Source: a phage | Direction: 5' to 3' (one strand) | Length of the DNA: 64,000 nucleotides | Sequence record: PX880101.1 | In this document: positions 19,501 to 61,157 of the stretch, one piece after another | How the letters are laid out: every line of letters begins with the position of its first letter | How positions within the stretch are numbered: position 1 is the stretch's first letter | Made by a program: the position numbers and the translations under genes | Notes under the pieces: generated by a model | Databases searched by the model: none | The model's input: the letters and a program-made list of their open reading frames with translations, nothing else | What the model was told of the DNA's origin: nothing

Positions 19501-19716
19501 TCAGTCCAGCGGTTCATCCTCTACTTCACTGAAATCAATGTTCATGGTCTCTTCCCAACCATCGATCTCAGCACAAGAGTGGAGTTCTTTAGGGTTTACT
19601 CCCAAAGCCTCAGCAACAGAGTCTATATTTAACACCTCTGGCAGGTATGATTCATCGAATTCAAGGTAAATCAGGCCACGAGTGTTGTCAGCTCCACCAA
19701 ATATTTCTATCTTCAT
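19501..19716 (-). CDS. small acidic protein (N-terminus MKIEIFG resembles paralog family A)
   Basis: ORF at the distal end of the minus-strand block. Confidence 0.4.
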   Translation of the reverse strand: MKIEIFGGADNTRGLIYLEFDESYLPEVLNIDSVAEALGVNPKELHSCAEIDGWEETMNIDFSEVEDEPLD

Positions 19717-19837
19717 AAAATCTCCTCTGGAAATGAGAGTGTGAACAGGGTTTTATACGTTCTAATGCACAGGAATTATACACGTTTTCCTCTTCAGGCC
19801 ATGCTTTAGCATGAGGAACCTGTGTGGGCTCGGTGCT

Positions 19838-20050
19838 TCATAGTCTACCACCCCTGAACTCTTCGTGCTCAGGCATAATAGAGAACCAGATATCTACGAT
19901 GTCTTCCCACGTTAGGTCATCAGCCTCAGGATCTACCTGGAGCGAAGATGGAGAATCTTCAGAATCGAAGTTTTCCTCTTTCACTGGCTCAGCCAAGGGA
20001 CATATAGTCACTCCTTTGGATGTCTCTTCAGATGCATGTGTGTTTATCAT
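19838..20050 (-). CDS. small acidic protein
   Basis: ORF, Asp/Glu-rich. Confidence 0.4.
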   Translation of the reverse strand: MINTHASEETSKGVTICPLAEPVKEENFDSEDSPSSLQVDPEADDLTWEDIVDIWFSIMPEHEEFRGGRL

Positions 20051-20354
20051 GTTCCACCCGTGAGTATTCCGGCAACAGCCGCTATGGACGTAATGATCAT
20101 CAGGATCACCACTAAAACTTCGGACAATGTTCTCATTGTGTACCTCATATTCTCCAAACTATGTGTGGATACTATCACGAGAGTGGCAATGTGTCAACAG
20201 AAACGCCGCGAGGGTTTGGTTAAAATCCGAGCGTATGGTGATTTGGGTCAAAACGGACGTGCGTTCTCGCTACGCTCGAAATATGGAGTTGTTTGTAGGA
20301 AGCTCTTAAACGCTCTGTAATGAGATTATCTGTCCAAGGTATGCAATCGTGCAC

Positions 20355-20387
20355 CAGATAAAGAAAAGGACGCCACAGAGCGTCCTA
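20355..20387 (-). terminator. putative intrinsic terminator on minus strand
   Basis: Palindrome aggacgccacagagcgtcct with a T-run on the minus strand. Confidence 0.45.
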
Positions 20388-20410
20388 GGTGTCTTAAATT
20401 TGATATTTTG

Positions 20411-20722
20411 CTATACCCATGAGGGCTTATCAAGGTTGGAGTAGCTGAAAGGTGTCAAAAGGTGACTGTCAAAATCCCTCAAACTATCCAAATCTTTTTC
20501 CTCGTCCTGACACCATCTGTGCCTACATTTATTGTTGTAGTGCATGGAATGCATGGCGTTCTGCAACTTAACAGGCACAAGTGATTCAGGAGTAGATAGT
20601 ATTGTTGGGTATGCCAGAACCACCTCAAACAGTGGAAACACATCGAAACTAAAGTCTACCTCTGCAGAGGTTGATGGCATATAGGAGTATTTAGCCGCCT
20701 TTGTAGACATAATCCACCTCAC
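20411..20722 (-). CDS. hypothetical protein
   Basis: ORF. Confidence 0.45.
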   Translation of the reverse strand: MRWIMSTKAAKYSYMPSTSAEVDFSFDVFPLFEVVLAYPTILSTPESLVPVKLQNAMHSMHYNNKCRHRWCQDEEKDLDSLRDFDSHLLTPFSYSNLDKPSWV

Positions 20723-21051
20723 ACAGGTTTGATAATACCTTTACCGAATAACTCTTCGTATCTAATCTTGTCCGGATCCCACTCCTGGATAATTTCGAAG
20801 ACAATATCCAACCCAGGAACAATCACTTCTCCAGTGTCAAGCTTAGCAAGAACAAAACCGGAAGGTTGAATGGTTTCCCAGTTACGGCGATCAGAATAAA
20901 ATACTTCGAAAATATCACCAACCTCAATCCGTTTCTGTTGCTCAAGATGCTCAAGGTTCTCTTTCATACGGATGCAACGGATTTTTCGTACAGGCCATAG
21001 ACCACCTGCATCACGTTCATTCAATTCTTTTACAGTGATCGGCATACCCAT
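20719..21051 (-). CDS. hypothetical protein
   Basis: ORF overlapping neighbour by 4 nt. Confidence 0.5.
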   Translation of the reverse strand: MGMPITVKELNERDAGGLWPVRKIRCIRMKENLEHLEQQKRIEVGDIFEVFYSDRRNWETIQPSGFVLAKLDTGEVIVPGLDIVFEIIQEWDPDKIRYEELFGKGIIKPV

Positions 21052-21106
21052 CTCAAATCTCCTTCATAGATAGTAAAAAGAGGGGCCTAAGCCCCCCTCT
21101 TTGTCA

Positions 21107-21412
21107 TTATTCTACAGAGCGTTTGAACAGAATGTCTGCCTCAGACATGTGCTCAACCTCTTCTTCGATTTTAGCTCGACGTTTTTCAGCCTCATATCGA
21201 ATATCGAACTCGGTAGCCACCAAAGATTTGATGAATTTAGGAGAATACAGATGATCCTGCTTCTCAACAAGAATGATATCCTTGATGGCATCTTTCAGAT
21301 CTTTAATCTGAAGCTGGAGTTCCACCAGTTCTTCGATTGTTTTGCGAAGGCGATCACGTTCTGCAGTGTCAGAAGGAAGAGAGGTGAACAGTTCAACTTT
21401 AGATTTAGCCAT
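21107..21412 (-). CDS. coiled-coil protein
   Basis: Heptad-like charged/hydrophobic pattern. Confidence 0.45.
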   Translation of the reverse strand: MAKSKVELFTSLPSDTAERDRLRKTIEELVELQLQIKDLKDAIKDIILVEKQDHLYSPKFIKSLVATEFDIRYEAEKRRAKIEEEVEHMSEADILFKRSVE

Positions 21413-21440
21413 AGTAAGAGTCTCCTTATGTTGTTTTAAA

Positions 21441-21758
21441 TTAACGTTCTACAAAAATACCGTTCAGTTCAATAACCAGGAATTTCTGGTCTTCACTATC
21501 GTCTCGTGCCAGCACCTCACAGACGTATCGGTCATCCCCATCATCATCGCAGTCAAATACAAGACTGAGGACTTTATCATGATAAACCTTCGCCACTACC
21601 GCCTCATAAGTATTGCCGATTGTGAATCCAAGATAATCTCCGATGCATTTGACAACAACATGGTCGCCAGCATTCAAGTCAATCTTCGTCATTACTGCGC
21701 TCCTTGGGTAATAATACTGTATGTAAAACTTTAACCAGAGATGTGAATAACGCCCCAA
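21441..21758 (-). CDS. hypothetical protein
   Basis: ORF. Confidence 0.45.
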   Translation of the reverse strand: MGRYSHLWLKFYIQYYYPRSAVMTKIDLNAGDHVVVKCIGDYLGFTIGNTYEAVVAKVYHDKVLSLVFDCDDDGDDRYVCEVLARDDSEDQKFLVIELNGIFVER

Positions 21759-21847
21759 AACACACCGATAGCGCTAAAACAGACAAGGCCATCATTAAAG
21801 CTTCAGTAAAATCAGTCACTCCTCACCTCTTGTTAGTCACTATACTG

Positions 21848-22111
21848 TCATTTATCCTTGCCGTCAAGAACTTTTTTAAATCTTTCAGGAATATCACCTG
21901 TTCTTAGATAGTTCATGACCTCACAAGGTTCCCACTTGAATTTCTTACAAAGCAGGGCGGCTGAGATTGTTTCATTGCGAAAAGAAAGGATATTAATATC
22001 CCATTCTGAGAACCCCAACTTCCGAAGGGTAGCTACAGAAATCCTCACCGCAACCCAGCAGCAAAAACATGCAACAAACGCCACTGCTATAACCCACATC
22101 AGGATGTTCAT
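21848..22111 (-). CDS. small membrane protein
   Basis: N-terminal TM segment ILMWVIAVAFVACFCCWVAV. Confidence 0.45.
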   Translation of the reverse strand: MNILMWVIAVAFVACFCCWVAVRISVATLRKLGFSEWDINILSFRNETISAALLCKKFKWEPCEVMNYLRTGDIPERFKKVLDGKDK

Positions 22112-22200
22112 ACAAGCACCTCACTGAAATACAAGACACAGTGTTAAGGTTACTGACCAGCAAATAATTAACAGTACCGTTGCAACCTTGGCAAGATTTA

Positions 22201-22488
22201 TCATAGTGCCTCTAAGATTTCATATCCTTCGGGTCGGAATACAAGCCACTCCGTGGCTCCGTTTGGTCGATACGCTTTATACAGAACAACCTGGTCTCGG
22301 CACATGCACATGGCTACATAGTTTTCATCCACACCTGCAGCCTGCATTGCATCTTCTTCTCCGGCAACTGCTTTGCTTACAACTTCCTTGGTAGGCAGGT
22401 GTGCGATCAGCTCGTCACCATCATTAATTCCAAAATGGCTGAGTTCGCCGTTGGTATCTTTAATCTTAATCTTAACCAGATCTTTCAT
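22201..22488 (-). CDS. hypothetical protein
   Basis: ORF; start overlaps upstream stop. Confidence 0.5.
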   Translation of the reverse strand: MKDLVKIKIKDTNGELSHFGINDGDELIAHLPTKEVVSKAVAGEEDAMQAAGVDENYVAMCMCRDQVVLYKAYRPNGATEWLVFRPEGYEILEAL

Positions 22489-22817
22489 TAGTCTTCCCCC
22501 AGGTTCAAAGGTCCTAAGATTTCATATGCCAGATTAGAAGTTACAAGAGGGTCTTCTGCGTCTTTAGTATTATACCACCCGTGAATAACCAGAGTCCCAC
22601 TTTGTTTCATGTCCAACTGGAACTCTTCTGCCGTTTCCTCATCCAGCTCCAAGATTTCCATAAGGTATTTGATGTTAGGGAGGTATGCAGCTGTTACAGT
22701 CCCCTCTACCAGACCTTCAGGCCAACCTACATCTGGATGACAAGTAGGAACCAGGTTGGTCAGCTTAATGGTGTACGCTTTTTCTGCACGAGCCTTCAGT
22801 AACGGGTCAATCTTCAT
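22488..22817 (-). CDS. hypothetical protein
   Basis: ORF; coupled to neighbours. Confidence 0.5.
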   Translation of the reverse strand: MKIDPLLKARAEKAYTIKLTNLVPTCHPDVGWPEGLVEGTVTAAYLPNIKYLMEILELDEETAEEFQLDMKQSGTLVIHGWYNTKDAEDPLVTSNLAYEILGPLNLGED

Positions 22818-23167
22818 TATTCGTCCTCCTCTTCGGTACCTGCTTCCAGTAATAAGTTAAGAATATCTTCTGCACAAGGCTCATAGAACTCTTGGCCTTC
22901 ATTATCGATGATTTTATAGTCATCTCCACGAATAATCAGGGGATCACTCTCAAAATTATCGAGACCTTTAACAACGACAACACGATCGATTGCCATCATT
23001 GTAAGAACTTTATCGACATCTTCCTCTGCTACACCATACTGCAGCAGAATGTCTTTGGTAGGAGGAACAGCATCCACCACAACACCGTTACCAAAACCTT
23101 CCGGGAGTTTAGCTAAAATATCTTCCGGAACCACATTCACATCAAAACCAGTAATTTCTACTTTCAT
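22817..23167 (-). CDS. small acidic protein (family A-like MKVEITG N-terminus)
   Basis: ORF; acidic C-terminus. Confidence 0.5.
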   Translation of the reverse strand: MKVEITGFDVNVVPEDILAKLPEGFGNGVVVDAVPPTKDILLQYGVAEEDVDKVLTMMAIDRVVVVKGLDNFESDPLIIRGDDYKIIDNEGQEFYEPCAEDILNLLLEAGTEEEDE

Positions 23168-23428
23168 TTACAGCACCTCTTCGTCAACTACTTCATAAAA
23201 ATGGCTTGGGATTGCAATAGCGTTCTCACCTTCACCCAAGAACACTGTCCCACTAACGATTAACATTAGAAGAACGTCTGCGATACCTTCCTCGGGGACG
23301 TTGCCAAAACCTTTGATCAGCTCGTAGGTTGGAATATTTACCTCTAAGATGTCACCATCTTTAGAACGGAAATCAACACCGTCCTGAATCTCTGCCGTTT
23401 CAAGGTTTTTCAATTTAATCTTCATCAA
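23168..23428 (-). CDS. paralog family A small acidic protein
   Basis: N-terminus MMKIKLKNL and C-terminus YEVVDEEVL shared with other family members. Confidence 0.5.
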   Translation of the reverse strand: MMKIKLKNLETAEIQDGVDFRSKDGDILEVNIPTYELIKGFGNVPEEGIADVLLMLIVSGTVFLGEGENAIAIPSHFYEVVDEEVL

Positions 23429-23504
23429 TCGGTCTCCTGTCTTGTTAAGATGAAGGTATTATTTCACACAGGGTTGGCGTTGTCAACACCTGTGTGCAAG
23501 AAAA

Positions 23505-23900
23505 TTACTGAAACAGTGCAGATAAATTACCTTCTGGTGGGAACTTATCTGCCAAAAACGGTGTTAGCACAGTAGCCTTCTGAAGATCTGGGGTCCACTC
23601 GTTGTTCAGAACATCCCAGTAGTACGCAATATTGCTGTGTGGGTGCCGCATTACGAACTTTTTCCCTTCGTAGTCATCTGAAACCTCTACAGAAGAAATA
23701 ACAACAGAATCTTCAAGGGTTTCTTCATAGAAAGATCCACCTTCAAATTTCCAACGAGATGCAAGAGCCCCTGCCTTGAACGCTGCAGATAACGGACTGT
23801 CGGCAAGAACATACATTTCTTGCACTCTGTCGCTGCGATCTTTGCTTCTTACGTTGTATACAGTATCTGAGCTATACTCAACACGGTATAGGCTTACCAT
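23505..23900 (-). CDS. paralog family B protein
   Basis: Shares AFKAGALASRWKFEGG and HPHSNIAYYWDVLNNEWTP with ORF 25712-26110. Confidence 0.5.
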   Translation of the reverse strand: MVSLYRVEYSSDTVYNVRSKDRSDRVQEMYVLADSPLSAAFKAGALASRWKFEGGSFYEETLEDSVVISSVEVSDDYEGKKFVMRHPHSNIAYYWDVLNNEWTPDLQKATVLTPFLADKFPPEGNLSALFQ

Positions 23901-24259
23901 TACCGCACCTCCTCAATAACTTCCACATCTGAACCTACCACAAATGCAAAAGGACAGGTTTCATGAAAGATATCCGGATCGCCGCCAAGCTTGCTAACAA
24001 TTTCTCCACCACTAATAAACACAAGCTCACCGATATTCATCAGATTGCTGAAATAGTACCCATAATGATTAAAGAATGCAGCAGGGTCAGGTAGACTAGT
24101 AGCCTCAAGCACTACATCGGTTGAGGTTACTTTCTTATCATAACCTCTCGCCTTTTGAGATGCAAGATCTGCAGAATCCTCAGGAGACCGGAGATGCACA
24201 GGAATTGTTTCACCAATAAAGCGTACTTTCATATTATCACCCAACAACCATAGCTTCAA
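23900..24259 (-). CDS. hypothetical protein with family A-like C-terminus (VGSDVEVIEEVR)
   Basis: ORF; C-terminal motif shared. Confidence 0.5.
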   Translation of the reverse strand: MKLWLLGDNMKVRFIGETIPVHLRSPEDSADLASQKARGYDKKVTSTDVVLEATSLPDPAAFFNHYGYYFSNLMNIGELVFISGGEIVSKLGGDPDIFHETCPFAFVVGSDVEVIEEVR

Positions 24260-24500
24260 AAGGAGTCATGAACGAATAAACGGCATCATCATCTGCTTCA
24301 GGGAATGCTCCCAAAGACTTCATGTCTGAGCCCTTGACAAATACAAGGTTTTGATCAAAAGCTTCTTGGGGGTCAATCCGATACATATTTCGTAGAATAT
24401 CGCTTACCTCCTCATCAAGAGGTGAGTATGCTGTGCACGTTTTTCCGATCAAGCTTTGAGAATCAGGGTAGCCACCTGAAGTTTTAAAATAAACAATCAT
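24237..24500 (-). CDS. hypothetical protein
   Basis: ORF. Confidence 0.45.
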   Translation of the reverse strand: MIVYFKTSGGYPDSQSLIGKTCTAYSPLDEEVSDILRNMYRIDPQEAFDQNLVFVKGSDMKSLGAFPEADDDAVYSFMTPFEAMVVG

Positions 24501-24591
24501 ATAGTATCACCTCTGGTAAGAGATTGGGATTCCTTTCCCATAAATAATTACAAATCTTCCTTAGCGAGGAAGTATGCTAATCCAAGCAGGA

Positions 24592-24861
24592 TTATTCCTC
24601 TACAATCTCATACACATCAGGAGTTACAATCAACTCTTCTCCATTACCAGGTGCAACAAACACCACCAAACCCTCAGGTGTGTGCTTTTTAGCCATCTCG
24701 ATAACATCTTCTCGCAGAGCTGGCTCCATCAGATCAAAACCTTCACCCAGGGCATCACGAACCACCTTCATATAGTCCACTGGTTGTGCTTCAACAATCA
24801 TGCCTTCAACCAGACCACAATTTTTGTCTGCCAGCTCAGTTTTGAATAATTTAATTTTCAT
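24592..24861 (-). CDS. paralog family A small acidic protein
   Basis: MKIKLFKTEL...PDVYEIVEE. Confidence 0.5.
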   Translation of the reverse strand: MKIKLFKTELADKNCGLVEGMIVEAQPVDYMKVVRDALGEGFDLMEPALREDVIEMAKKHTPEGLVVFVAPGNGEELIVTPDVYEIVEE

Positions 24862-24998
24862 TTAGAGGTCTCCTCAATTATTTGATATTAATAGCCGTAA
24901 CCTAACACATTAACTACAACTGCGATTGCAAACATAATTTCAAAGCATGCAATCTCTACATTTGGGACTAATTTCTTAATCACACCCATTGTAGCACC

Positions 24999-25319
24999 TC
25001 ATTCTCCAAAGTCAATCTTTACTTTGCCTTTCCCCTTACCTTTCTTTCCACCGCATTTAGCCAGCTGACGTGCTGCAACATCTACCATACGGTCAGTTGC
25101 CTCGTAAGCATCACTGCCTTTAGCCTTGGCAATAACTTCTTTTCCAGAATTGTCAAAAATGAACGCCATAACTTCCTGGTGATCATTTTCAACTTTTACA
25201 CTCACACGTGCATAGTTAACAGAGGGATGTAAACGCTCCAGCTTGGACATTTTGCGGGAAATAAAAGATACCATACCTTCTGTGATTTCTACATTGTTGC
25301 CAGTGATTTCAATTTGCAT
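24999..25319 (-). CDS. hpf: ribosome hibernation promoting factor / RaiA-like protein
   Basis: MQIEITGNNVEITEG...KLE...VSVKVE...AKG.DAYEA.D...ARQL closely resembles the E. coli HPF N-terminal signature as recalled from memory; Lys/Gly-rich tail. Confidence 0.65.
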   Translation of the reverse strand: MQIEITGNNVEITEGMVSFISRKMSKLERLHPSVNYARVSVKVENDHQEVMAFIFDNSGKEVIAKAKGSDAYEATDRMVDVAARQLAKCGGKKGKGKGKVKIDFGE

Positions 25320-25403
25320 AACGTGTTCCTTTTAAGGAAGAGGGAATAACTATCTCTCTTTGAAAACAATGATACTAAATCTGAAGCGTTGTGTCAACAG
25401 TTT

Positions 25404-25694
25404 TTACAGCTTGTTGTCGATAGTTTTTAAAATATCCACAGCAAGATCTGCCATTTTTCGAACATACTCTGCAAACTCAACAGGATCCTTGATCAAAGAA
25501 TTCACAGGGTCGTACCCTAGAGCGTTTAAAATGGCTGCAGCATCTACAACCTTCTCATCATTTGCGAAGATCTCTCCGTCAAACTTGTAGGTCCATTTTG
25601 AGTCAACCTTAGCAGAGCAGGGTTTGTCCATGCTTGTTACACCATCGTCTTTAAACTCTCCTGCGTTATCAATATTTAGAATTAAATCCATCAT
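25404..25694 (-). CDS. hypothetical protein
   Basis: ORF. Confidence 0.45.
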   Translation of the reverse strand: MMDLILNIDNAGEFKDDGVTSMDKPCSAKVDSKWTYKFDGEIFANDEKVVDAAAILNALGYDPVNSLIKDPVEFAEYVRKMADLAVDILKTIDNKL

Positions 25695-25711
25695 GGTGAC
25701 ACCTCACTGTT

Positions 25712-26110
25712 TCAGTTTAGCTTTTCTTCAACAACCCCATAACTTGGGGCAGAGTCAAGAGCTTTCTGGTTTAAAAGTGGCGTAGCAGAATCTGCAAACG
25801 GTGTCCAAGTTTTTGTTCTGGCATTCCAGTAATGCTTCACTCTGGAATCTGGATGCACTATAACAAAAACTTTTTCACTTGTCAACACATTAATTTCTTC
25901 TACACCCTTGCTGATAATTTCTCCGTCATAGCCCCCAGTCTGGTATCCTTCGTACCAGGTTCTTGCATAGGCATAGCCAGCCTGCCAGCATGCAGCCTCC
26001 TCCGAGGTGGAGACTACGTAGAAGTCTTTCTCAAATTCCGGAATACGCCCTTGCTTTACGCTCCAAGCTCCGCGAATTTTCATTGTTACTTTGAAAAGCT
26101 TGTTCTTCAT
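25712..26110 (-). CDS. paralog family B protein
   Basis: Shares CWQAGYAYARTWYEGY and HPDSRVKHYWNARTKTWTP with ORF 23505-23900. Confidence 0.5.
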   Translation of the reverse strand: MKNKLFKVTMKIRGAWSVKQGRIPEFEKDFYVVSTSEEAACWQAGYAYARTWYEGYQTGGYDGEIISKGVEEINVLTSEKVFVIVHPDSRVKHYWNARTKTWTPFADSATPLLNQKALDSAPSYGVVEEKLN

Positions 26111-26111
26111 A

Positions 26112-26366
26112 CTACCGCTCTACAATCTCTACGTCTGTTCCTACACCGAAGGCATAGTAATGTTCTTCCCCAAAGTAATACTTGGGGACACCCGCTTTGA
26201 TCAGATCTAACCCGCGAATAAATACCACACCGTGTGATACAGTGGAATGCTTCTGACGCACAGGATCGTTGTCAGGCAACCATTCAAAGTACACCGCAGG
26301 TACAACCTTTCCCTTCAGGAAGGATTGTCCCAAGTAGACGTTAGAATCAAGAATTTTAACCTTCAT
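26112..26366 (-). CDS. paralog family A small acidic protein
   Basis: MKVKILDSNVYLGQ...GTDVEIVER. Confidence 0.55.
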   Translation of the reverse strand: MKVKILDSNVYLGQSFLKGKVVPAVYFEWLPDNDPVRQKHSTVSHGVVFIRGLDLIKAGVPKYYFGEEHYYAFGVGTDVEIVER

Positions 26367-26583
26367 TCTCGTCCTCCACTATCTCTACATCCTCACCAAG
26401 GGCAAAGTTGTAGGTCCACTGGCTGTCAAAGCAGTCCTGAGATGCACCAGCGGCAATAAGATCTGCACCTTTTATTTTTAAAAGGTCAGGATAATCTTCG
26501 TTAGGGATAGCGGTAAACACTTTCCCCACTAAGGGCTCCTGACCAATATAGAAGCTTGAATCTAAAACTTTAACTTTCATCAA
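26356..26583 (-). CDS. paralog family A small acidic protein
   Basis: MMKVKVLDSSFYIGQ...GEDVEIVEDENEG; tandem with 26112-26366. Confidence 0.55.
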   Translation of the reverse strand: MMKVKVLDSSFYIGQEPLVGKVFTAIPNEDYPDLLKIKGADLIAAGASQDCFDSQWTYNFALGEDVEIVEDENEG

Positions 26584-26867
26584 CGGTCTCCCTCAGGCGG
26601 TTGTGGGACGTAAACACTGTTACGAATATCGTCAGCAGTGTAGTAATAAGTGGTTCCAACCCTATCTCGGGCTGCAATGTACTCTGCTATACCAACAAGT
26701 GCCATTGATTTGGTGGCGTATCTTCCCCACTCGTTAGCTCCCCAGTAGAATTTAGACCAGTAGGGAATAAGACCGAACAAATATACCTTTTGACGAACTT
26801 CCCAGTAAGTGCCTTTTCCGACAAGTTTAAACTCTACTTCACTACTGTTAATCTTTTTCATTATCAA
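26580..26867 (-). CDS. hypothetical protein
   Basis: ORF; 4 nt overlap with neighbours. Confidence 0.45.
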   Translation of the reverse strand: MIMKKINSSEVEFKLVGKGTYWEVRQKVYLFGLIPYWSKFYWGANEWGRYATKSMALVGIAEYIAARDRVGTTYYYTADDIRNSVYVPQPPEGDR

Positions 26868-27160
26868 TCTCCCTCTACCGTGGTCGGATTGTCAGTAAGA
26901 AATTGAGCATTGGCTGGAGGCACGCCTGACATTTTCCACACAACCATAAGTTTATAACCAGGCACTCTATTAAGTGCAGATCGAGTAGAGTTTGTGCACG
27001 TATACTTTCGCTTTCCAAACCCGTTCTCCATCATAATCCAGTACCCAGTATCTTTGTCACCAGGTATCGGTAGACCACCTTCATCAACCCACTGAATTGA
27101 CCACGGCACGATGGCTACAGCTTTATATTTAAACTTTTTAAACCACTCAAAAAGTTTCAT
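26864..27160 (-). CDS. hypothetical protein
   Basis: ORF. Confidence 0.45.
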   Translation of the reverse strand: MKLFEWFKKFKYKAVAIVPWSIQWVDEGGLPIPGDKDTGYWIMMENGFGKRKYTCTNSTRSALNRVPGYKLMVVWKMSGVPPANAQFLTDNPTTVEGD

Positions 27161-27255
27161 AATTCAGCCCCGCATAGACATAATCACTATAAACAGGCAA
27201 ACAATGAATCCGAATGCCACGCCACCCATAAACGTTAATATTGATGCAATCATAG

Positions 27256-27519
27256 TCAATCAGCCTCGCCTGGCAACTCTTCTACCTTAACATGCCGAAA
27301 AGTGTTACCGTAATGGTTGATCCATGACATCAGCTCACTTTCTTGCTCTTCCTCTGGGATGAACTCTCGAATACTGACAAGTTTTAAGAAAACCCAATCA
27401 CAATCTGCACCCATTCTACCAGACAGACAATAGTGCTTCATAAAAACCCTCCCGCCCGGTTTAGAATATTGCTTCTTCCATTGCGCCTGAGAGCAACAAA
27501 GAGGCAATCTGGCTAACAT
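27256..27519 (-). CDS. hypothetical protein
   Basis: ORF. Confidence 0.4.
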   Translation of the reverse strand: MLARLPLCCSQAQWKKQYSKPGGRVFMKHYCLSGRMGADCDWVFLKLVSIREFIPEEEQESELMSWINHYGNTFRHVKVEELPGEAD

Positions 27520-27651
27520 TCATCTCAGACTCTACTTCCTCCCCTTTGAAAGGTTCGCGGCAGAATAGGACTGTTTCAGGACTTTTACTTCGAACAATAT
27601 AATACAAATCATTCAATGTGTTGTAGTAATAAGTGTTAAAACGTAAGTTTT

Positions 27652-27939
27652 TCATTTTCTAGTCCCCTTCTTAGATTTTTGTGCAGAAACGCTTTCTGCA
27701 ATACGAGACAGGCGTTCTTCTGAAGCTTTACCTATCCCAGGTTTCTTGAGCGGGTTATCTTTATGACCGCAATCCAATTGGATATTGGATACCTCCCCAA
27801 TCTTGTAAGTCAATTCTAGCAAAAGGTTGTCGTCCTTGTCAAATGTTTTTACGATAAATTTTTTATCGTTCTCCTGAACTTCATATCTGGTACCTGCAGT
27901 ATACAGCATGGTGCCATCAGCATAGGATATCCAGATCAT
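27652..27939 (-). CDS. hypothetical protein
   Basis: ORF. Confidence 0.45.
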   Translation of the reverse strand: MIWISYADGTMLYTAGTRYEVQENDKKFIVKTFDKDDNLLLELTYKIGEVSNIQLDCGHKDNPLKKPGIGKASEERLSRIAESVSAQKSKKGTRK

Positions 27940-28283
27940 TGAGCCTCCTTTTGCTGCAACAGCATTAACTCTTTGTTAGAGATCTTTACTGCTGTTTTTA
28001 TTGTTCCATCTTCACGAAACCACGACCAGAACTCTACAGTGTCACCACTATCAAGTAAAGCATACCCATGGTAAAAATCTTTGTCCTTAGACAGTTTCTC
28101 ATCGATATCTGCATCGACACATTCGTGATCCATAGCATTTTGCCTGAACGCATCGGTTATGCCAATGCACGCCTTGCTCTCAAGACTGGTATATCCGATA
28201 TCTTTTAATTCAGTTTCCCAAGTCCAGTACCCTATAAAAGCTAAAACAGCTACCCACAGTAATAACGTTTTAATCTTTGGCAT
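27936..28283 (-). CDS. membrane-anchored or secreted protein
   Basis: N-terminal signal/anchor IKTLLLWVAVLAFIGYW. Confidence 0.45.
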   Translation of the reverse strand: MPKIKTLLLWVAVLAFIGYWTWETELKDIGYTSLESKACIGITDAFRQNAMDHECVDADIDEKLSKDKDFYHGYALLDSGDTVEFWSWFREDGTIKTAVKISNKELMLLQQKEAQ

Positions 28284-28345
28284 TCTCTCTACCTCTTTCT
28301 TAGTTTATTTCACTATGGCACATCCTTTGTGCCATATCTCAACTA

Positions 28346-28816
28346 CTACTTAAATAGTAGTTCAAAATAGTGCAAAATTAACAGAAGTTGAACTACACCT
28401 AGTGCAACGGCGAGTATGTTAATCTTAGAATCGAAAAACTTCTTAACTTTTACTCTAAAAGGTTCCTTAATGTCCTTTACGATCCTATCTATAGATGACC
28501 TCATATCCCTGATTACCATCCTGAACATTAAAGACGGATGCTCCCCCATCTCTGTAACGGAATCGAAAACATACTCTCTTCGGTCATAAGGGCCGCCAGC
28601 TCTGCGTATTAACCTCTCCACAGAGACCTCGAACGTCACACCTGTAACGTAATCATCTATAACAAGTCGTGACGGGTCTTTACCTTTACTATCAAGAGGT
28701 ATCAAAGTTATCTTTCCAGATTTTGTTAAAATTTCCCCTTTTTCAAGCAAGGTGTACCAATGCTCTCTGCCAAGACTGTTGAGGCACGTTTTTACATATT
28801 TAACAAACATCGTCAC
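28346..28816 (-). CDS. hypothetical protein with C-terminal TM segment
   Basis: ORF; hydrophobic C-terminus NILAVALGVVQLLLILHYF. Confidence 0.45.
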   Translation of the reverse strand: MTMFVKYVKTCLNSLGREHWYTLLEKGEILTKSGKITLIPLDSKGKDPSRLVIDDYVTGVTFEVSVERLIRRAGGPYDRREYVFDSVTEMGEHPSLMFRMVIRDMRSSIDRIVKDIKEPFRVKVKKFFDSKINILAVALGVVQLLLILHYFELLFK

Positions 28817-29016
28817 CCCTCATCGCACGTCTGATATAACCACTCTATAAAATCTTGATACCATTCGCCCTCTGAGCGCTCCGTAGGCCAATAATCTTCA
28901 CCCTCTCGTGCATTAAAATCTGAGTATTCAACTTTCCACTCCTTTACCAGCTCGTGGAGAAGGTTTTCAGCCTGCTCTAAAGATTTATTTTTTACCATTG
29001 CTGTCTCCTTTTTCAA
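28813..29016 (-). CDS. hypothetical small protein
   Basis: ORF. Confidence 0.4.
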   Translation of the reverse strand: MKKETAMVKNKSLEQAENLLHELVKEWKVEYSDFNAREGEDYWPTERSEGEWYQDFIEWLYQTCDEG

Positions 29017-29217
29017 GATAGTTATACATCAGAACTGCACCACCTAAGATGGCTACCAGTAACAATATCCCAGATAGCATCTCAATAAACATGGCTTGAA
29101 ACACTGGAAGGTCTCCCTAAATTAACGCACCATTTTAAATACATGCTCTTTTCCCATAAAGGTGCCTGGCTAAGATCTGCGTAGAACGCAATCTCTTTAA
29201 GAACAGTATAGATAGTT

Positions 29218-29445
29218 TTAGGTGCGGTCTCCATCCCTACTCTCCTTCCTGATATTCTTGTAGTAATCAACTAGGCACATTATTACGATGAAGATAACAA
29301 CAGGCCAAAAAGGTGCAGCAGTGATGATGGTGATAAAATCATCAAACTTCACCCTTCGTCTGGACACGATGCATACACCTGTCAAGAATACCGCTGTTAT
29401 AACGGACATTACCAGGTAACCTATTAGCACAACATTTATACTCAT
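29218..29445 (-). CDS. small membrane protein (two TM segments)
   Basis: VVLIGYLVMSVITAVFLTGVCIV and ITAAPFWPVVIFIVIMCLV. Confidence 0.4.
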   Translation of the reverse strand: MSINVVLIGYLVMSVITAVFLTGVCIVSRRRVKFDDFITIITAAPFWPVVIFIVIMCLVDYYKNIRKESRDGDRT

Positions 29446-29475
29446 TGGTCCTCCCTTTGTAGGTTAAATTGTATA

Positions 29476-30009
29476 CTACAAATGGTCGCTGAGGGTGTCA
29501 AGAAAATTATCCCGTTCTTTCTCAGAGTTTTCATGTGTGTAGCTGAAAAACATATCGAGAATAACCTTATTGATATATTCCAGCTCCTCTGTGTTCAGAT
29601 GCTTAGCAGGATCTACAATGACATCCCAAATATCATACAGACCACACTCATGATACCCATAACGCCACTCAATTGTCAAGCTGAGCGGCAAATCTTTACC
29701 TTCACAAACAACCTTCCATCTACATATGTTGGTATCTGGTCGTACCTGTGCACGGTACACCTGCACAAAATCCAATTTGAATTTGAGGTACTCGTCATAC
29801 AATTTAAGCACAAAGCTCTCGATTTGTGGAGACACTTTTGCAGCAAACTGTGCGTATTTGTACTTGCACTGGATGATCTTTCTGCGTTTTGCAGTTAAAT
29901 TTTTTGCCGCCAGTTGTTCTTCAGTGTATCTCCACCTACGATCAACAAACGCAACAGGGTCTTTGTCCCCATATAGGTCTTCCCAGTTAATCAGAAGCAT
30001 ACCTGTCAC
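29476..30009 (-). CDS. hypothetical protein
   Basis: ORF. Confidence 0.5.
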   Translation of the reverse strand: MTGMLLINWEDLYGDKDPVAFVDRRWRYTEEQLAAKNLTAKRRKIIQCKYKYAQFAAKVSPQIESFVLKLYDEYLKFKLDFVQVYRAQVRPDTNICRWKVVCEGKDLPLSLTIEWRYGYHECGLYDIWDVIVDPAKHLNTEELEYINKVILDMFFSYTHENSEKERDNFLDTLSDHL

Positions 30010-30239
30010 TCCTCCACAACTTCAAGGCCTTTACCGCCTCGCTCTGGCAGATTACTTAAAGATAGGTAATACATATAATCAGGAGAGATCCTGCCAGACT
30101 CTGCACCTGCAGCTAGTAAATCCTTCCCTTTAACCAGGACAACATTCTCGTTTGCAGATAGCCGTTTTGCTTCCACAATTTTACCAACACAGTCAACCAA
30201 GGAAGGGTACCCTAAATCTGTAAGAAATTTAACTTTCAT
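30006..30239 (-). CDS. paralog family A small acidic protein
   Basis: MKVKFLTDLGY...GLEVVEE. Confidence 0.5.
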   Translation of the reverse strand: MKVKFLTDLGYPSLVDCVGKIVEAKRLSANENVVLVKGKDLLAAGAESGRISPDYMYYLSLSNLPERGGKGLEVVEE

Positions 30240-60344: not shown

Positions 60345-60419
60345 GCCCTGTTAGCTTAGTGGATAAAGCAGCGGCCTTCTAAGCCGTTGACACTGGTTCG
60401 AGTCCAGTACGGGGTGCCA
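60345..60419 (+). tRNA. tRNA-Arg (anticodon TCT)
   Basis: Hand-folded cloverleaf: acceptor GCCCTGT/ACGGGGT with G-U pairs, loop CTTCTAA, T-loop TTCGAGT, encoded CCA. Confidence 0.75.
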
Positions 60420-60423
60420 AATT

Positions 60424-60510
60424 GGGGAGTTATCCCGTAGAGGTAGCGGTGTAGACTGTAAATCTATTGTCATTGCGACTCGGGTGGTTCGACTCCACCA
60501 CTCCCCACCA
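60424..60510 (+). tRNA. tRNA-Tyr (anticodon GTA)
   Basis: Acceptor GGGGAGT/ACTCCCC, loop CTGTAAA, long variable arm, T-loop TTCGACT, CCA. Confidence 0.8.
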
Positions 60511-60624
60511 AATTTATATTTTTAGATGCATAAATAATACAGATAATGGCATTGATATTTATCGTCGTTTATACTAGTCACTAACTGCTCGAAAATCAGT
60601 GTCATTATCAGTATAATTTATAAA

Positions 60625-60715
60625 GGAGGGTAGGGAGCAATGGTGCTCAAGCGGTCTTGAAAACCGTCCCGTTGGGTATGACTCGATGATGGTTCGATTC
60701 CATTACTCTCCGCCA
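60625..60715 (+). tRNA. tRNA-Ser (anticodon TGA)
   Basis: Acceptor GGAGGGT/ACTCTCC, loop CTTGAAA, long variable arm, T-loop TTCGATT, CCA. Confidence 0.7.
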
Positions 60716-60813
60716 CATTGTTGACCTTGTAATTAAGCGAAAGCCGGAAGCAGAACCGGATTATCAAATGTTACAGTCGTCATCGCCGACTAGCAACATG
60801 GTCAACATACTGA

Positions 60814-60912
60814 GCTAGGTAAGCCCTTTGGCAAGGGCGAGGATTTTTAATCCTGAAAATAGACGAGGTAGTAGTTGAATACATAGGTGGTTCGATTCCA
60901 TCACCTAGCACC
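60814..60912 (+). tRNA. aberrant tRNA-like element (possible Lys-TTT loop) with ~29 nt insertion before the T-arm
   Basis: Perfect acceptor GCTAGGT/ACCTAGC, D-arm GCCC-TTTGGCAA-GGGC, T-loop GGTTCGATTCC, but oversized variable region and imperfect anticodon stem; no encoded CCA. Confidence 0.35.
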
Positions 60913-60917
60913 TTTTT

Positions 60918-60993
60918 GCTGATGTAGCACAATCGGTAGTGCAATTGATTTGTAATCAATAGGTTGTAGGTTCAAGTCCTGCCATCAGCACCA
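60918..60993 (+). tRNA. tRNA-Thr (anticodon TGT)
   Basis: Acceptor GCTGATG/CATCAGC, D-arm GCAC/GTGC, loop TTTGTAA, T-loop TTCAAGT, CCA. Confidence 0.8.
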
Positions 60994-60994
60994 A

Positions 60995-61069
60995 GGCCCT
61001 GTAGCTGGAAGGTTCAAGCAAGCGACTCATAATCGCCAGACGGTGGTTCAATTCCACCCAGGGCCACCA
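60995..61069 (+). tRNA. tRNA-Met (anticodon CAT; could be Ile-lysidine type)
   Basis: Acceptor GGCCCTG/CAGGGCC, loop CTCATAA, T-loop TTCAATT, CCA; no initiator-type features. Confidence 0.7.
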
Positions 61070-61080
61070 AATAATAAATA

Positions 61081-61157
61081 CTCCGCGTAGCTCAGCTTGG
61101 TAGAGCGCCTGATTTGGGATCAGGAGGTCGAGTGTTCGAATCACTCCGTGGAGACCA
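61081..61157 (+). tRNA. tRNA-Pro (anticodon TGG)
   Basis: Acceptor CTCCGCG/CGTGGAG (C1:G72), D-arm GCTC/GAGC, loop TTTGGGA, T-loop TTCGAAT, CCA. Confidence 0.75.

Follow-up and report, generated by a model that had tools for sequence, protein, structure and literature searches.

Two families of small, mostly acidic proteins and a duplicated three-gene unit in a minus-strand gene block of an rV5-like phage

The stretch analyzed here, which we refer to throughout as the window, consists of 64,000 nucleotides of phage DNA (sequence record PX880101.1), and our subject is a group of small acidic open reading frames (ORFs) between its positions 19,501 and 30,239. This 10.7-kb region is 97–99% identical to more than 100 rV5-like Escherichia coli phages of the genus Vequintavirus and is part of a minus-strand gene block that spans approximately 19.5 kb to 56 kb of the window. 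In curated records, nearly all genes at 19.5–31 kb are labeled hypothetical. A preliminary description of the window, made from the letters alone, had proposed that six to eight of these ORFs constitute a single expanded family of paralogs sharing an MKVK-like N-terminus and an acidic C-terminus. All eight ORFs that it named are present on the minus strand where it placed them, and the expansion is real, but the members were mis-grouped: the small acidic ORFs are two families plus one outsider, not one family. Four of the eight belong to what we have designated Family 1, three belong to Family 2, and 19501–19716 belongs to neither, while three genes that we place with the families (24237–24500, 22488–22817 and, as a possible member, 22201–22488) had been missed. 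Both families are already catalogued yet uncharacterized. The genes concerned, together with the two partner genes discussed below, are as follows.

30006–30239, minus strand: Family 1, solo copy, 77 residues; phrog_5009 at E = 8e-36; 100% identical to bas54_0166
26356–26580, minus strand: Family 1, first gene of tandem pair 1, 74 residues from its ATG; the ORF as originally listed starts at a TTG at 26583
26112–26366, minus strand: Family 1, second gene of tandem pair 1, 84 residues; phrog_5009 at E = 4e-27
25712–26110, minus strand: B1, 132-residue partner directly downstream of pair 1; phrog_7379; BLASTP match to B2 at E = 2e-7
24237–24500, minus strand: Family 1, first gene of tandem pair 2, 87 residues; 100% identical to bas54_0152
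23900–24232, minus strand: Family 1, second gene of tandem pair 2, 110 residues from its ATG; 100% identical to bas54_0151
23505–23900, minus strand: B2, 131-residue partner; phrog_7379; 99.2% identical to bas54_0150
24592–24861, minus strand: probable Family 2 member by HHalign, 89 residues, apart from the array; 10% against Family 1
23168–23425, minus strand: Family 2 core member by HHalign, 85 residues, first gene of a four-gene array
22817–23167, minus strand: Family 2 core member by HHalign, 116 residues, with an extra acidic C-terminal helix
22488–22817, minus strand: Family 2 core member by HHalign, 109 residues, outside the original list
22201–22488, minus strand: possible Family 2 member by HHalign, 95 residues, outside the original list
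19501–19716, minus strand: unrelated small acidic ORF, 71 residues, in its own PHROG (12108)

For three of the ORFs a TTG start had been listed, and an ATG 1–9 codons downstream is the likelier start in each case (26580, 23425 and 24232); these are also the positions at which the PHROG matches and GenBank annotations begin. The ORF originally listed for 23900–24232, which is diverged and carries inserts, extends to a TTG at 24259. Below, genes are mostly named by their lower coordinate.

The five genes of Family 1 (30006–30239, 26356–26580, 26112–26366, 24237–24500 and 23900–24232) are joined by evidence of increasing reach. In an all-against-all BLASTP comparison that took in every window ORF of at least 45 residues, 26356 matched 26112 (E = 1e-14) and 30006 (E = 7e-6), and the C-terminal 40 residues of 23900–24259 matched both tandem genes, 26356 and 26112 (E = 0.003 and 0.005), while 24592, 23168, 22817 and 19501 found no significant match among the window ORFs. 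The claim that two copies are directly tandem is borne out by the first of these matches, and the two genes overlap by 11 nt. Against the PHROGs, 26356, 26112 and 30006 match phrog_5009 over the whole profile (E = 1e-27 to 1e-37) and 24237 matches it weakly (E = 1.2e-4); the remaining listed ORFs each sit in separate families. The genes 23900 and 24237 are catalogued in separate PHROGs (13661 and 13920), and joining them to Family 1 took profile comparison with divergent orthologs. A profile of the core members searched against all window ORFs recovers five genes, namely the three core genes, 23900–24259 (E = 1.3e-5) and 24237–24500 (E about 1e-5), with all other window ORFs at E of about 1 or higher. 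A broader Family 1 hidden Markov model (HMM) returns the core three at E < 1e-24, 24237 at E = 2e-7 and 23900 at E = 5e-6.

Two divergent relatives of the window from metagenome assemblies, L003 and L007, whose proteins are roughly 30–90% identical to those of the window, were used to build three-lineage alignments (window, L003, L007) for 20 genes of the block, and all pairs of these were compared with HHalign. In this comparison, 24237 and 23900 join Family 1 with probabilities of 96.7% and 94.7%, and their orthologs are recovered by the Family 1 HMM as well (24237: E = 3e-12 in L003 and 2e-10 in L007; 23900: E = 1e-8 and 2e-7). The placement of 24592, 23168, 22817 and 19501 alongside the core did not survive this analysis. 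The best nonmember in the Family 1 HMM search is 24592 at E = 0.35, 23168 follows at E = 8.5, and 22817 and 19501 fall outside the listing at E ≤ 10; HHalign gives at most 10% for 24592, 23168 and 22817 against Family 1, even with three-lineage alignments, and at most 4% for 19501 against every group tested, which leaves this last ORF in neither family.

Three of these excluded genes have relatives of their own. Family 2 is well supported for 23168–23425, 22817–23167 and 22488–22817, with HHalign probabilities against the 22817 group of 95.5% (E = 1.5e-8) for 23168 and 94.0% (E = 1.4e-7) for 22488. Membership is probable for 24592–24861, which aligns over its full length with the merged Family 2 core (79.8%, E = 1.5e-5), and possible for 22201–22488, which is borderline against the merged core (52%, E = 1.5e-4) and reaches 44% against the 22817 group; the L007 ortholog of the latter gene (P0083) is retrieved by the Family 2 profile. 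By comparison, 17 control groups reach at most 4.5% against the merged core. Of the five Family 2 genes, four lie one after another (22201–23425). Several GenBank and RefSeq records call the ortholog of 24592–24861 a “sigma 54 modulation factor.” This label is probably an annotation transfer error: the protein has no Pfam match at E ≤ 1, and hence no PF02482 (Ribosomal_S30AE), the true ribosome hibernation factor homolog is the neighboring 24999–25319 (PF02482, E = 4e-15), and HHalign between the 24592 and 24999–25319 groups stays below 2%.

The arrangement of Family 1 is that of two tandem pairs (26356/26112 and 24237/23900) and the solo copy 30006. Each pair is directly followed by a partner of 131–132 residues, B1 after pair 1 and B2 after pair 2, where the start codon of B2 overlaps the stop of 23900–24232, and the two partners are paralogs of each other. 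The second genes of the pairs, 26112 and 23900, are mutual best matches in HHalign (95.7%), and the first genes, 26356 and 24237, match at 77% over their full length. Together with the paralogy of B1 and B2, these pair-to-pair matches point to duplication of a unit that may be written A-A'-B, and an origin of both units by such a three-gene duplication fits the sequence comparisons. Copy content does vary across related phages: L003 and L007 carry the B2 copy of the partner only and have no B1 ortholog, and the second gene of pair 1 is shortened to 44 residues in L007 (L007 8723–8857). Between B2 and the Family 2 array, both relatives also contain an additional gene whose product has a Phage_P22_Y8K6 domain (L003 11389–11685, L007 11384–11680), a gene that the window does not have.

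Family 1 extends well beyond this group of phages. A HMMER scan of 1.8 billion representative proteins yielded 48 relatives, counted as cluster representatives, at E < 1e-3, most of them 65–85 residues long, with the consensus MKVKLLNDGGYxGM..VGKV..A...I.G.DLIAAGA...F...Y.F..G.E.EIVEE. Judged by this consensus, the conserved termini noticed in the preliminary description are genuine features of Family 1. Elsewhere the domain occurs in polypeptides of two or three copies (P0037, P0026 and P0012); one 42-kb phage contig (L010) carries two copies, another locus (L012) three adjacent domains and a third (L009) three domains within one ORF. Because the domains are fused in other phages, these arrangements suggest that neighboring Family 1 copies act together. 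Two other searches found less: tblastn with a distant member (P0027) matched one Proteus phage and nothing else, and a word-indexed protein search with 26356 returned close relatives alone. For Family 2, the word-indexed search, which has limited sensitivity and was run with 24592 and Family 2, likewise gave close relatives alone, and the family looks restricted to the rV5-like lineage.

The two families also differ in their predicted folds. For Family 1, structure modeling confidently predicts a five-strand barrel domain of approximately 70 residues with a putative SH3-like fold, in which 26112–26366 and 24237–24500 would carry inserts of 14 and 19 residues, respectively, between strands 2 and 3. 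The Family 2 model, built for 23168 from 15 sequences (predicted local distance difference test score, pLDDT, 88.7), shows five strands, with strand 2 separated from strand 3 by two helices. Its best viral Foldseek matches are a Vibrio phage Vc1 protein (template modeling score, TM, 0.74) and two rV5-like phage proteins; the Vc1 protein was not recovered by tblastn of 23168. Four of the five Family 1 members have an isoelectric point of 4.0–5.4, and none of the Family 1 proteins has a transmembrane segment; a membrane role for them was rejected, given the lack of a hydrophobic segment. A role as virion proteins was likewise considered and rejected, as the APECc02 “virion structural protein” of this block is the ortholog of 28346–28816, which is not a family member.

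If the families are distinct, how the preliminary description came to see one set of termini in both needs an explanation, and part of it appears to lie in translation signals. Terminal motifs of this type are concentrated at 22.2–30.7 kb, and Met-Lys starts are frequent in general (17 of the 65 minus-strand ORFs). Acidic tails often hold the Shine-Dalgarno sequence of the next gene, since GAG GAG (Glu-Glu) reads as GAGG; examples are ...VIEEVR ahead of the B2 start, ...TEEEDE ahead of the 22488 start and ...DEEVL ahead of the 22817 start. Across the minus-strand junctions at 19.4–56 kb, a Shine-Dalgarno-like motif is found in the last 21 nt of 22 of the 30 close-packed genes (stop no more than 12 nt from the next start) and 11 of the 34 others (Fisher p = 0.0013), and the last six positions hold on average 1.80 acidic residues in close-packed genes versus 1.09 in others (p = 0.019), an enrichment that we attribute to Shine-Dalgarno sequences lying within the final codons. 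Embedded ribosome-binding sites thus account for some of the common acidic C-terminus, and the shared termini, although genuine within Family 1, are partly generic. The more general caution is that similar termini in tightly packed phage operons can come from translation signals without common descent.

An alternative closer to the original proposal is that all of these small ORFs form one very diverged superfamily, with Family 2 being a form of Family 1 that has gained two helices between strands 2 and 3 and lost the short helix that follows strand 3. The order of the five strands is the same in both models, the Family 1 members 24237 and 26112 have inserts at the same position, and the VVVVKGLD of 22817 resembles the Family 1 strand-3 motif (V/L)xx(V/I)KGxD. 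When the profiles of the two families are compared, the first approximately 30 columns alone align (MK[VI]K[LI].N...G...G.[VI]..A..P), with an HHalign score of 21.4 (P = 0.004, probability 8%) that none of 60 column shuffles reached (8.6 ± 1.7). This likeness is suggestive but not significant: shuffling takes away the trivial shared Met-Lys start as well and so overstates the signal, and a reversed profile already scores 15.5. HHalign probabilities between the families amount to 4.5–8% with the N-terminus alone aligned, the Foldseek match lists of the two models overlap at TM of about 0.4 only, and the Family 1 HMM scores Family 2 proteins at E = 0.35 to more than 8. We therefore think a single superfamily improbable and retain two separate families.

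What these proteins do is not evident from any library, as the preliminary description had already stated. Pfam holds no family at E ≤ 1 for any Family 1 protein and no KOW or SH3 motif; a PDB sequence profile search with Family 1 gave nothing credible; Pfam, NCBIfam, PDB sequence profiles and Rfam offered nothing useful for either family; and the profile libraries scanned contain no enzymatic signature and no named function for Families 1 and 2. PHROG 5009 itself is an uncharacterized family with no known function. SH3-like barrels such as Spt5 KOW domains, PsaE, the retroviral integrase C-terminal domain and SH3 domains have no sequence similarity to Family 1, which differs from them in being acidic and not basic and in a short helix after strand 3 with a conserved GxDLIxAGA, and the structural scores are too low to imply common descent. 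A homolog of 30006–30239 in a different setting is mEp021_40 of the temperate coliphages mEp021, mEp013 and mEp554 (41–49% identical over its full length, HMM E = 9e-27). Unlike the genes of the window, this uncharacterized gene is a single copy, with the gene for the late regulator Q on one side and that for the holin on the other. Its product, gp40, goes unmentioned in the mEp021 genome paper, and nothing specific emerged from a general search of the literature on early genes of rV5.

The location of the genes in an early region, another element of the preliminary description, agrees with the promoters, although the early timing itself is inferred. Sigma-70-like promoter matches precede the small-gene block, and all 12 that agree at 10 or more of 12 consensus positions lie on the coding strand, one of them directly ahead of the Family 2 array.

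23458–23486, minus strand: sigma-70-like promoter match between B2 and the Family 2 array, TTGACA-17-AATAAT with TG, 11/12; a consensus match alone

The suggestion that the genes are diversifying, on the other hand, does not hold for most of them. Most copies are 98–100% identical across Vequintavirus genomes, and divergent alleles are found in 26112–26366 and 23168–23425 only. The former is 79.5% identical to its counterparts in Bas54, Bas55 and APECc02, with neighboring genes mostly at 95–100%, and the latter is 85–88% identical to the proteins of the same three phages; its window allele is in the minority (24 of 119 records), with 93 records at 80–90% identity and two below 60%. Measured against L003 and L007, the fastest-changing genes of the block include those of Family 2 and of the B proteins (28–57% identity), with several neighbors at 73–91%.

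Data on necessity come from transposon-insertion sequencing of phage Bas54 (MaxBurger), available as Extended Data Table 8 of a preprint (bioRxiv 10.1101/2025.11.20.689424). By gene mapping, bas54_0152, bas54_0151 and bas54_0150 correspond to the trio 24237–24500, 23900–24232 and 23505–23900, that is, the second A-A'-B unit, and the sister unit is bas54_0159/0158/0157, in which bas54_0157 corresponds to B1 (25712–26110). On K-12, insertions are tolerated in all Family 1 and Family 2 genes, with bas54_0150 non-essential and bas54_0151, 0152 and 0153 intermediate (10.1101/2025.11.20.689424). On the clinical isolate CFE311, by contrast, insertions in bas54_0150, 0151 and 0152 fall from 71–142 reads to 0.0 (log2 fold change −6.77, −6.17 and −7.16, respectively; adjusted p = 0), and those in bas54_0157 are down 4-fold (log2 fold change −2.14; adjusted p = 0), while bas54_0158, 0159, 0166 and 0146–0149 are unaffected and bas54_0153, upstream of the trio, shows a log2 fold change of −2.78 that is not significant (10.1101/2025.11.20.689424). 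Polarity looks weak, because insertions in bas54_0158 and 0159, just upstream of bas54_0157, have no effect while bas54_0157 itself is depleted, and because the authors of the preprint report that polarity is not widespread (10.1101/2025.11.20.689424). With polarity apparently weak, all three genes of the trio are likely needed on CFE311, and it is this requirement on one host, together with dispensability on K-12, that leads us to consider the trio a host-specific factor.

Our favored interpretation, to which we give about even credence, is that these are early cytoplasmic target-binding proteins and that the trio 24237/23900/23505 forms a host-specific, probably counter-defense unit. Family membership, gene layout, predicted folds and domain fusions come from the present analysis and the conditional essentiality of the trio on CFE311 from the published insertion data, whereas we infer the early timing, the complex, the binding and the defense target. 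In this model, two separate expansions of small, soluble, mostly acidic proteins would be expressed early, probably from host-type promoters, and the SH3-like domain of Family 1 would work in multiples, as the two or three fused copies in other phages suggest. The Family 1 proteins would bind a protein target and would be neither enzymes nor nucleic-acid binders. The trio would jointly neutralize a strain-specific host factor of wild E. coli, most likely a defense system, and the other Family 1 copies and Family 2 might be spare or alternative specificities for other hosts. The original guess of a host-interaction or anti-defense role thus gains support from the CFE311-specific necessity of the trio.

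A more specific version would make the trio a three-component counter-defense complex against an immunity system of uropathogenic E. coli, with the sister unit (26356, 26112 and 25712), the solo copy and perhaps Family 2 as alternative specificities. We offer this tentatively, as a possibility on the doubtful side. If it were true, the widespread domain of approximately 70 residues would be a general phage module for recognizing host targets.

Small phage-encoded inhibitors that bind host defense proteins or their signals, such as Ocr and Tad2, offer a comparison. Like Family 1 proteins, they are small, acidic and soluble; they are made early, as the proteins of the window probably are, and are needed in a host-dependent manner. 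The likeness is one of possible action and not of family. A nearer parallel is found in the same phage group and the same screen, where bas54_0140 and bas54_0063 (a MoxR ATPase) are reported to overcome the defense system DS-28 of E. coli CFE311, the target being confirmed with deletion mutants (10.1101/2025.11.20.689424). Like the trio, these two genes are dispensable on K-12 and depleted on CFE311, but their proteins are unrelated to those of the trio, for which the data are insertion counts. The bas54_0140 ortholog of the window is 20411–20710 on the minus strand (99% identical), which belongs to neither family.

Several observations weigh against a counter-defense role for the trio. Its genes are 98–100% identical across Vequintavirus, unlike an arms-race hot spot, and B2 in particular is at least 95% identical in all 119 phage records that carry it. 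The remaining three Family 1 copies and all of Family 2 have no phenotype on either K-12 or CFE311, and the main text of the preprint is silent on the trio, clean deletions having been made of bas54_0063 and bas54_0140 only (10.1101/2025.11.20.689424). Supplement sheets S6 and S7 (K-12 versus CFE303 and CFE311) are numerically identical, and the command line in the sheet titled CFE303 names the 311 sample, so there is one real host comparison and not two. Beyond this, CFE311 might call for the trio because of its physiology or some other host difference and not because of defense, and the depletion of bas54_0151 and 0152 could be polar on bas54_0150.

This last point can be extended into an alternative in which the shared termini would be convergent and functionally meaningless, the genes would be dispensable ORFans of the ordinary kind, and B2 alone would account for the CFE311 phenotype, with upstream insertions being polar. 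The frequency of Met-Lys starts and the coincidence of acidic tails with embedded Shine-Dalgarno sequences would both be expected if this were so, as would the tolerance of all Family 1 and Family 2 genes to insertion on K-12; in addition, A', B2 and their neighbors are translationally coupled, and the upstream bas54_0153 is partly depleted, if not significantly. However, Family 1 is conserved in dozens of distant phages, including its C-terminal strand, which argues that it is selected as a protein, and both the absence of a polar effect of bas54_0158 and 0159 on bas54_0157 and the preprint authors' general assessment speak against polarity. We consider this explanation unlikely.

A third alternative is that Family 1 modulates the host transcription or translation machinery through KOW/L24-like barrels that act beside a phage ribosome hibernation factor. 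The hibernation factor homolog 24999–25319 does lie between the two A-A'-B units, but the proteins have no KOW or other Pfam match, their acidity argues against RNA binding, one would not expect a general takeover function to be required on a single isolate, and on CFE311 the hibernation factor gene can be interrupted by insertions without effect. We regard this possibility as very remote from what the data indicate, and the host-specific target-binding role remains our preferred reading.

The early genes of the rV5-like phages, which are candidates for phage therapy and biocontrol, mostly lack a known function. In this context, the loosely defined family of tiny proteins gives way to a gene map that comprises two families and a duplicated three-gene unit, and one of the units is now tied to an existing host-specific phenotype that was not followed up by the original authors. 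The trio is accordingly a testable lead to a new host-range or counter-defense determinant and to the role of a recurrent small barrel domain.

Some further features of the window deserve mention. Between approximately 17100 and 19450, some 2.3 kb without an ORF longer than 86 residues separates divergently oriented gene blocks; the guanine-cytosine skew switches sign within this interval, and Rfam identifies no known RNA family in it. The equivalent intergenic region of approximately 2 kb in Bas54 tolerated zero transposon insertions (10.1101/2025.11.20.689424). Among the records matching the region are 18 “Campylobacter phage” entries (MG0656xx) with C. jejuni as the stated host, although the region is that of an E. 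coli rV5-like phage; two among the matches listed, C12 and C14, are approximately 97% identical to it, and the host labels of these records may be unreliable. Seven tRNA genes are clustered on the plus strand at 60345–61157; one of them, called at 99 nt, has an unusual anticodon of four bases (atcc), and no amino acid is assigned to it. Finally, six consecutive small genes at 26864–28816 have no counterpart in Bas54 (locus L014), and this stretch looks like a presence/absence segment within Vequintavirus.

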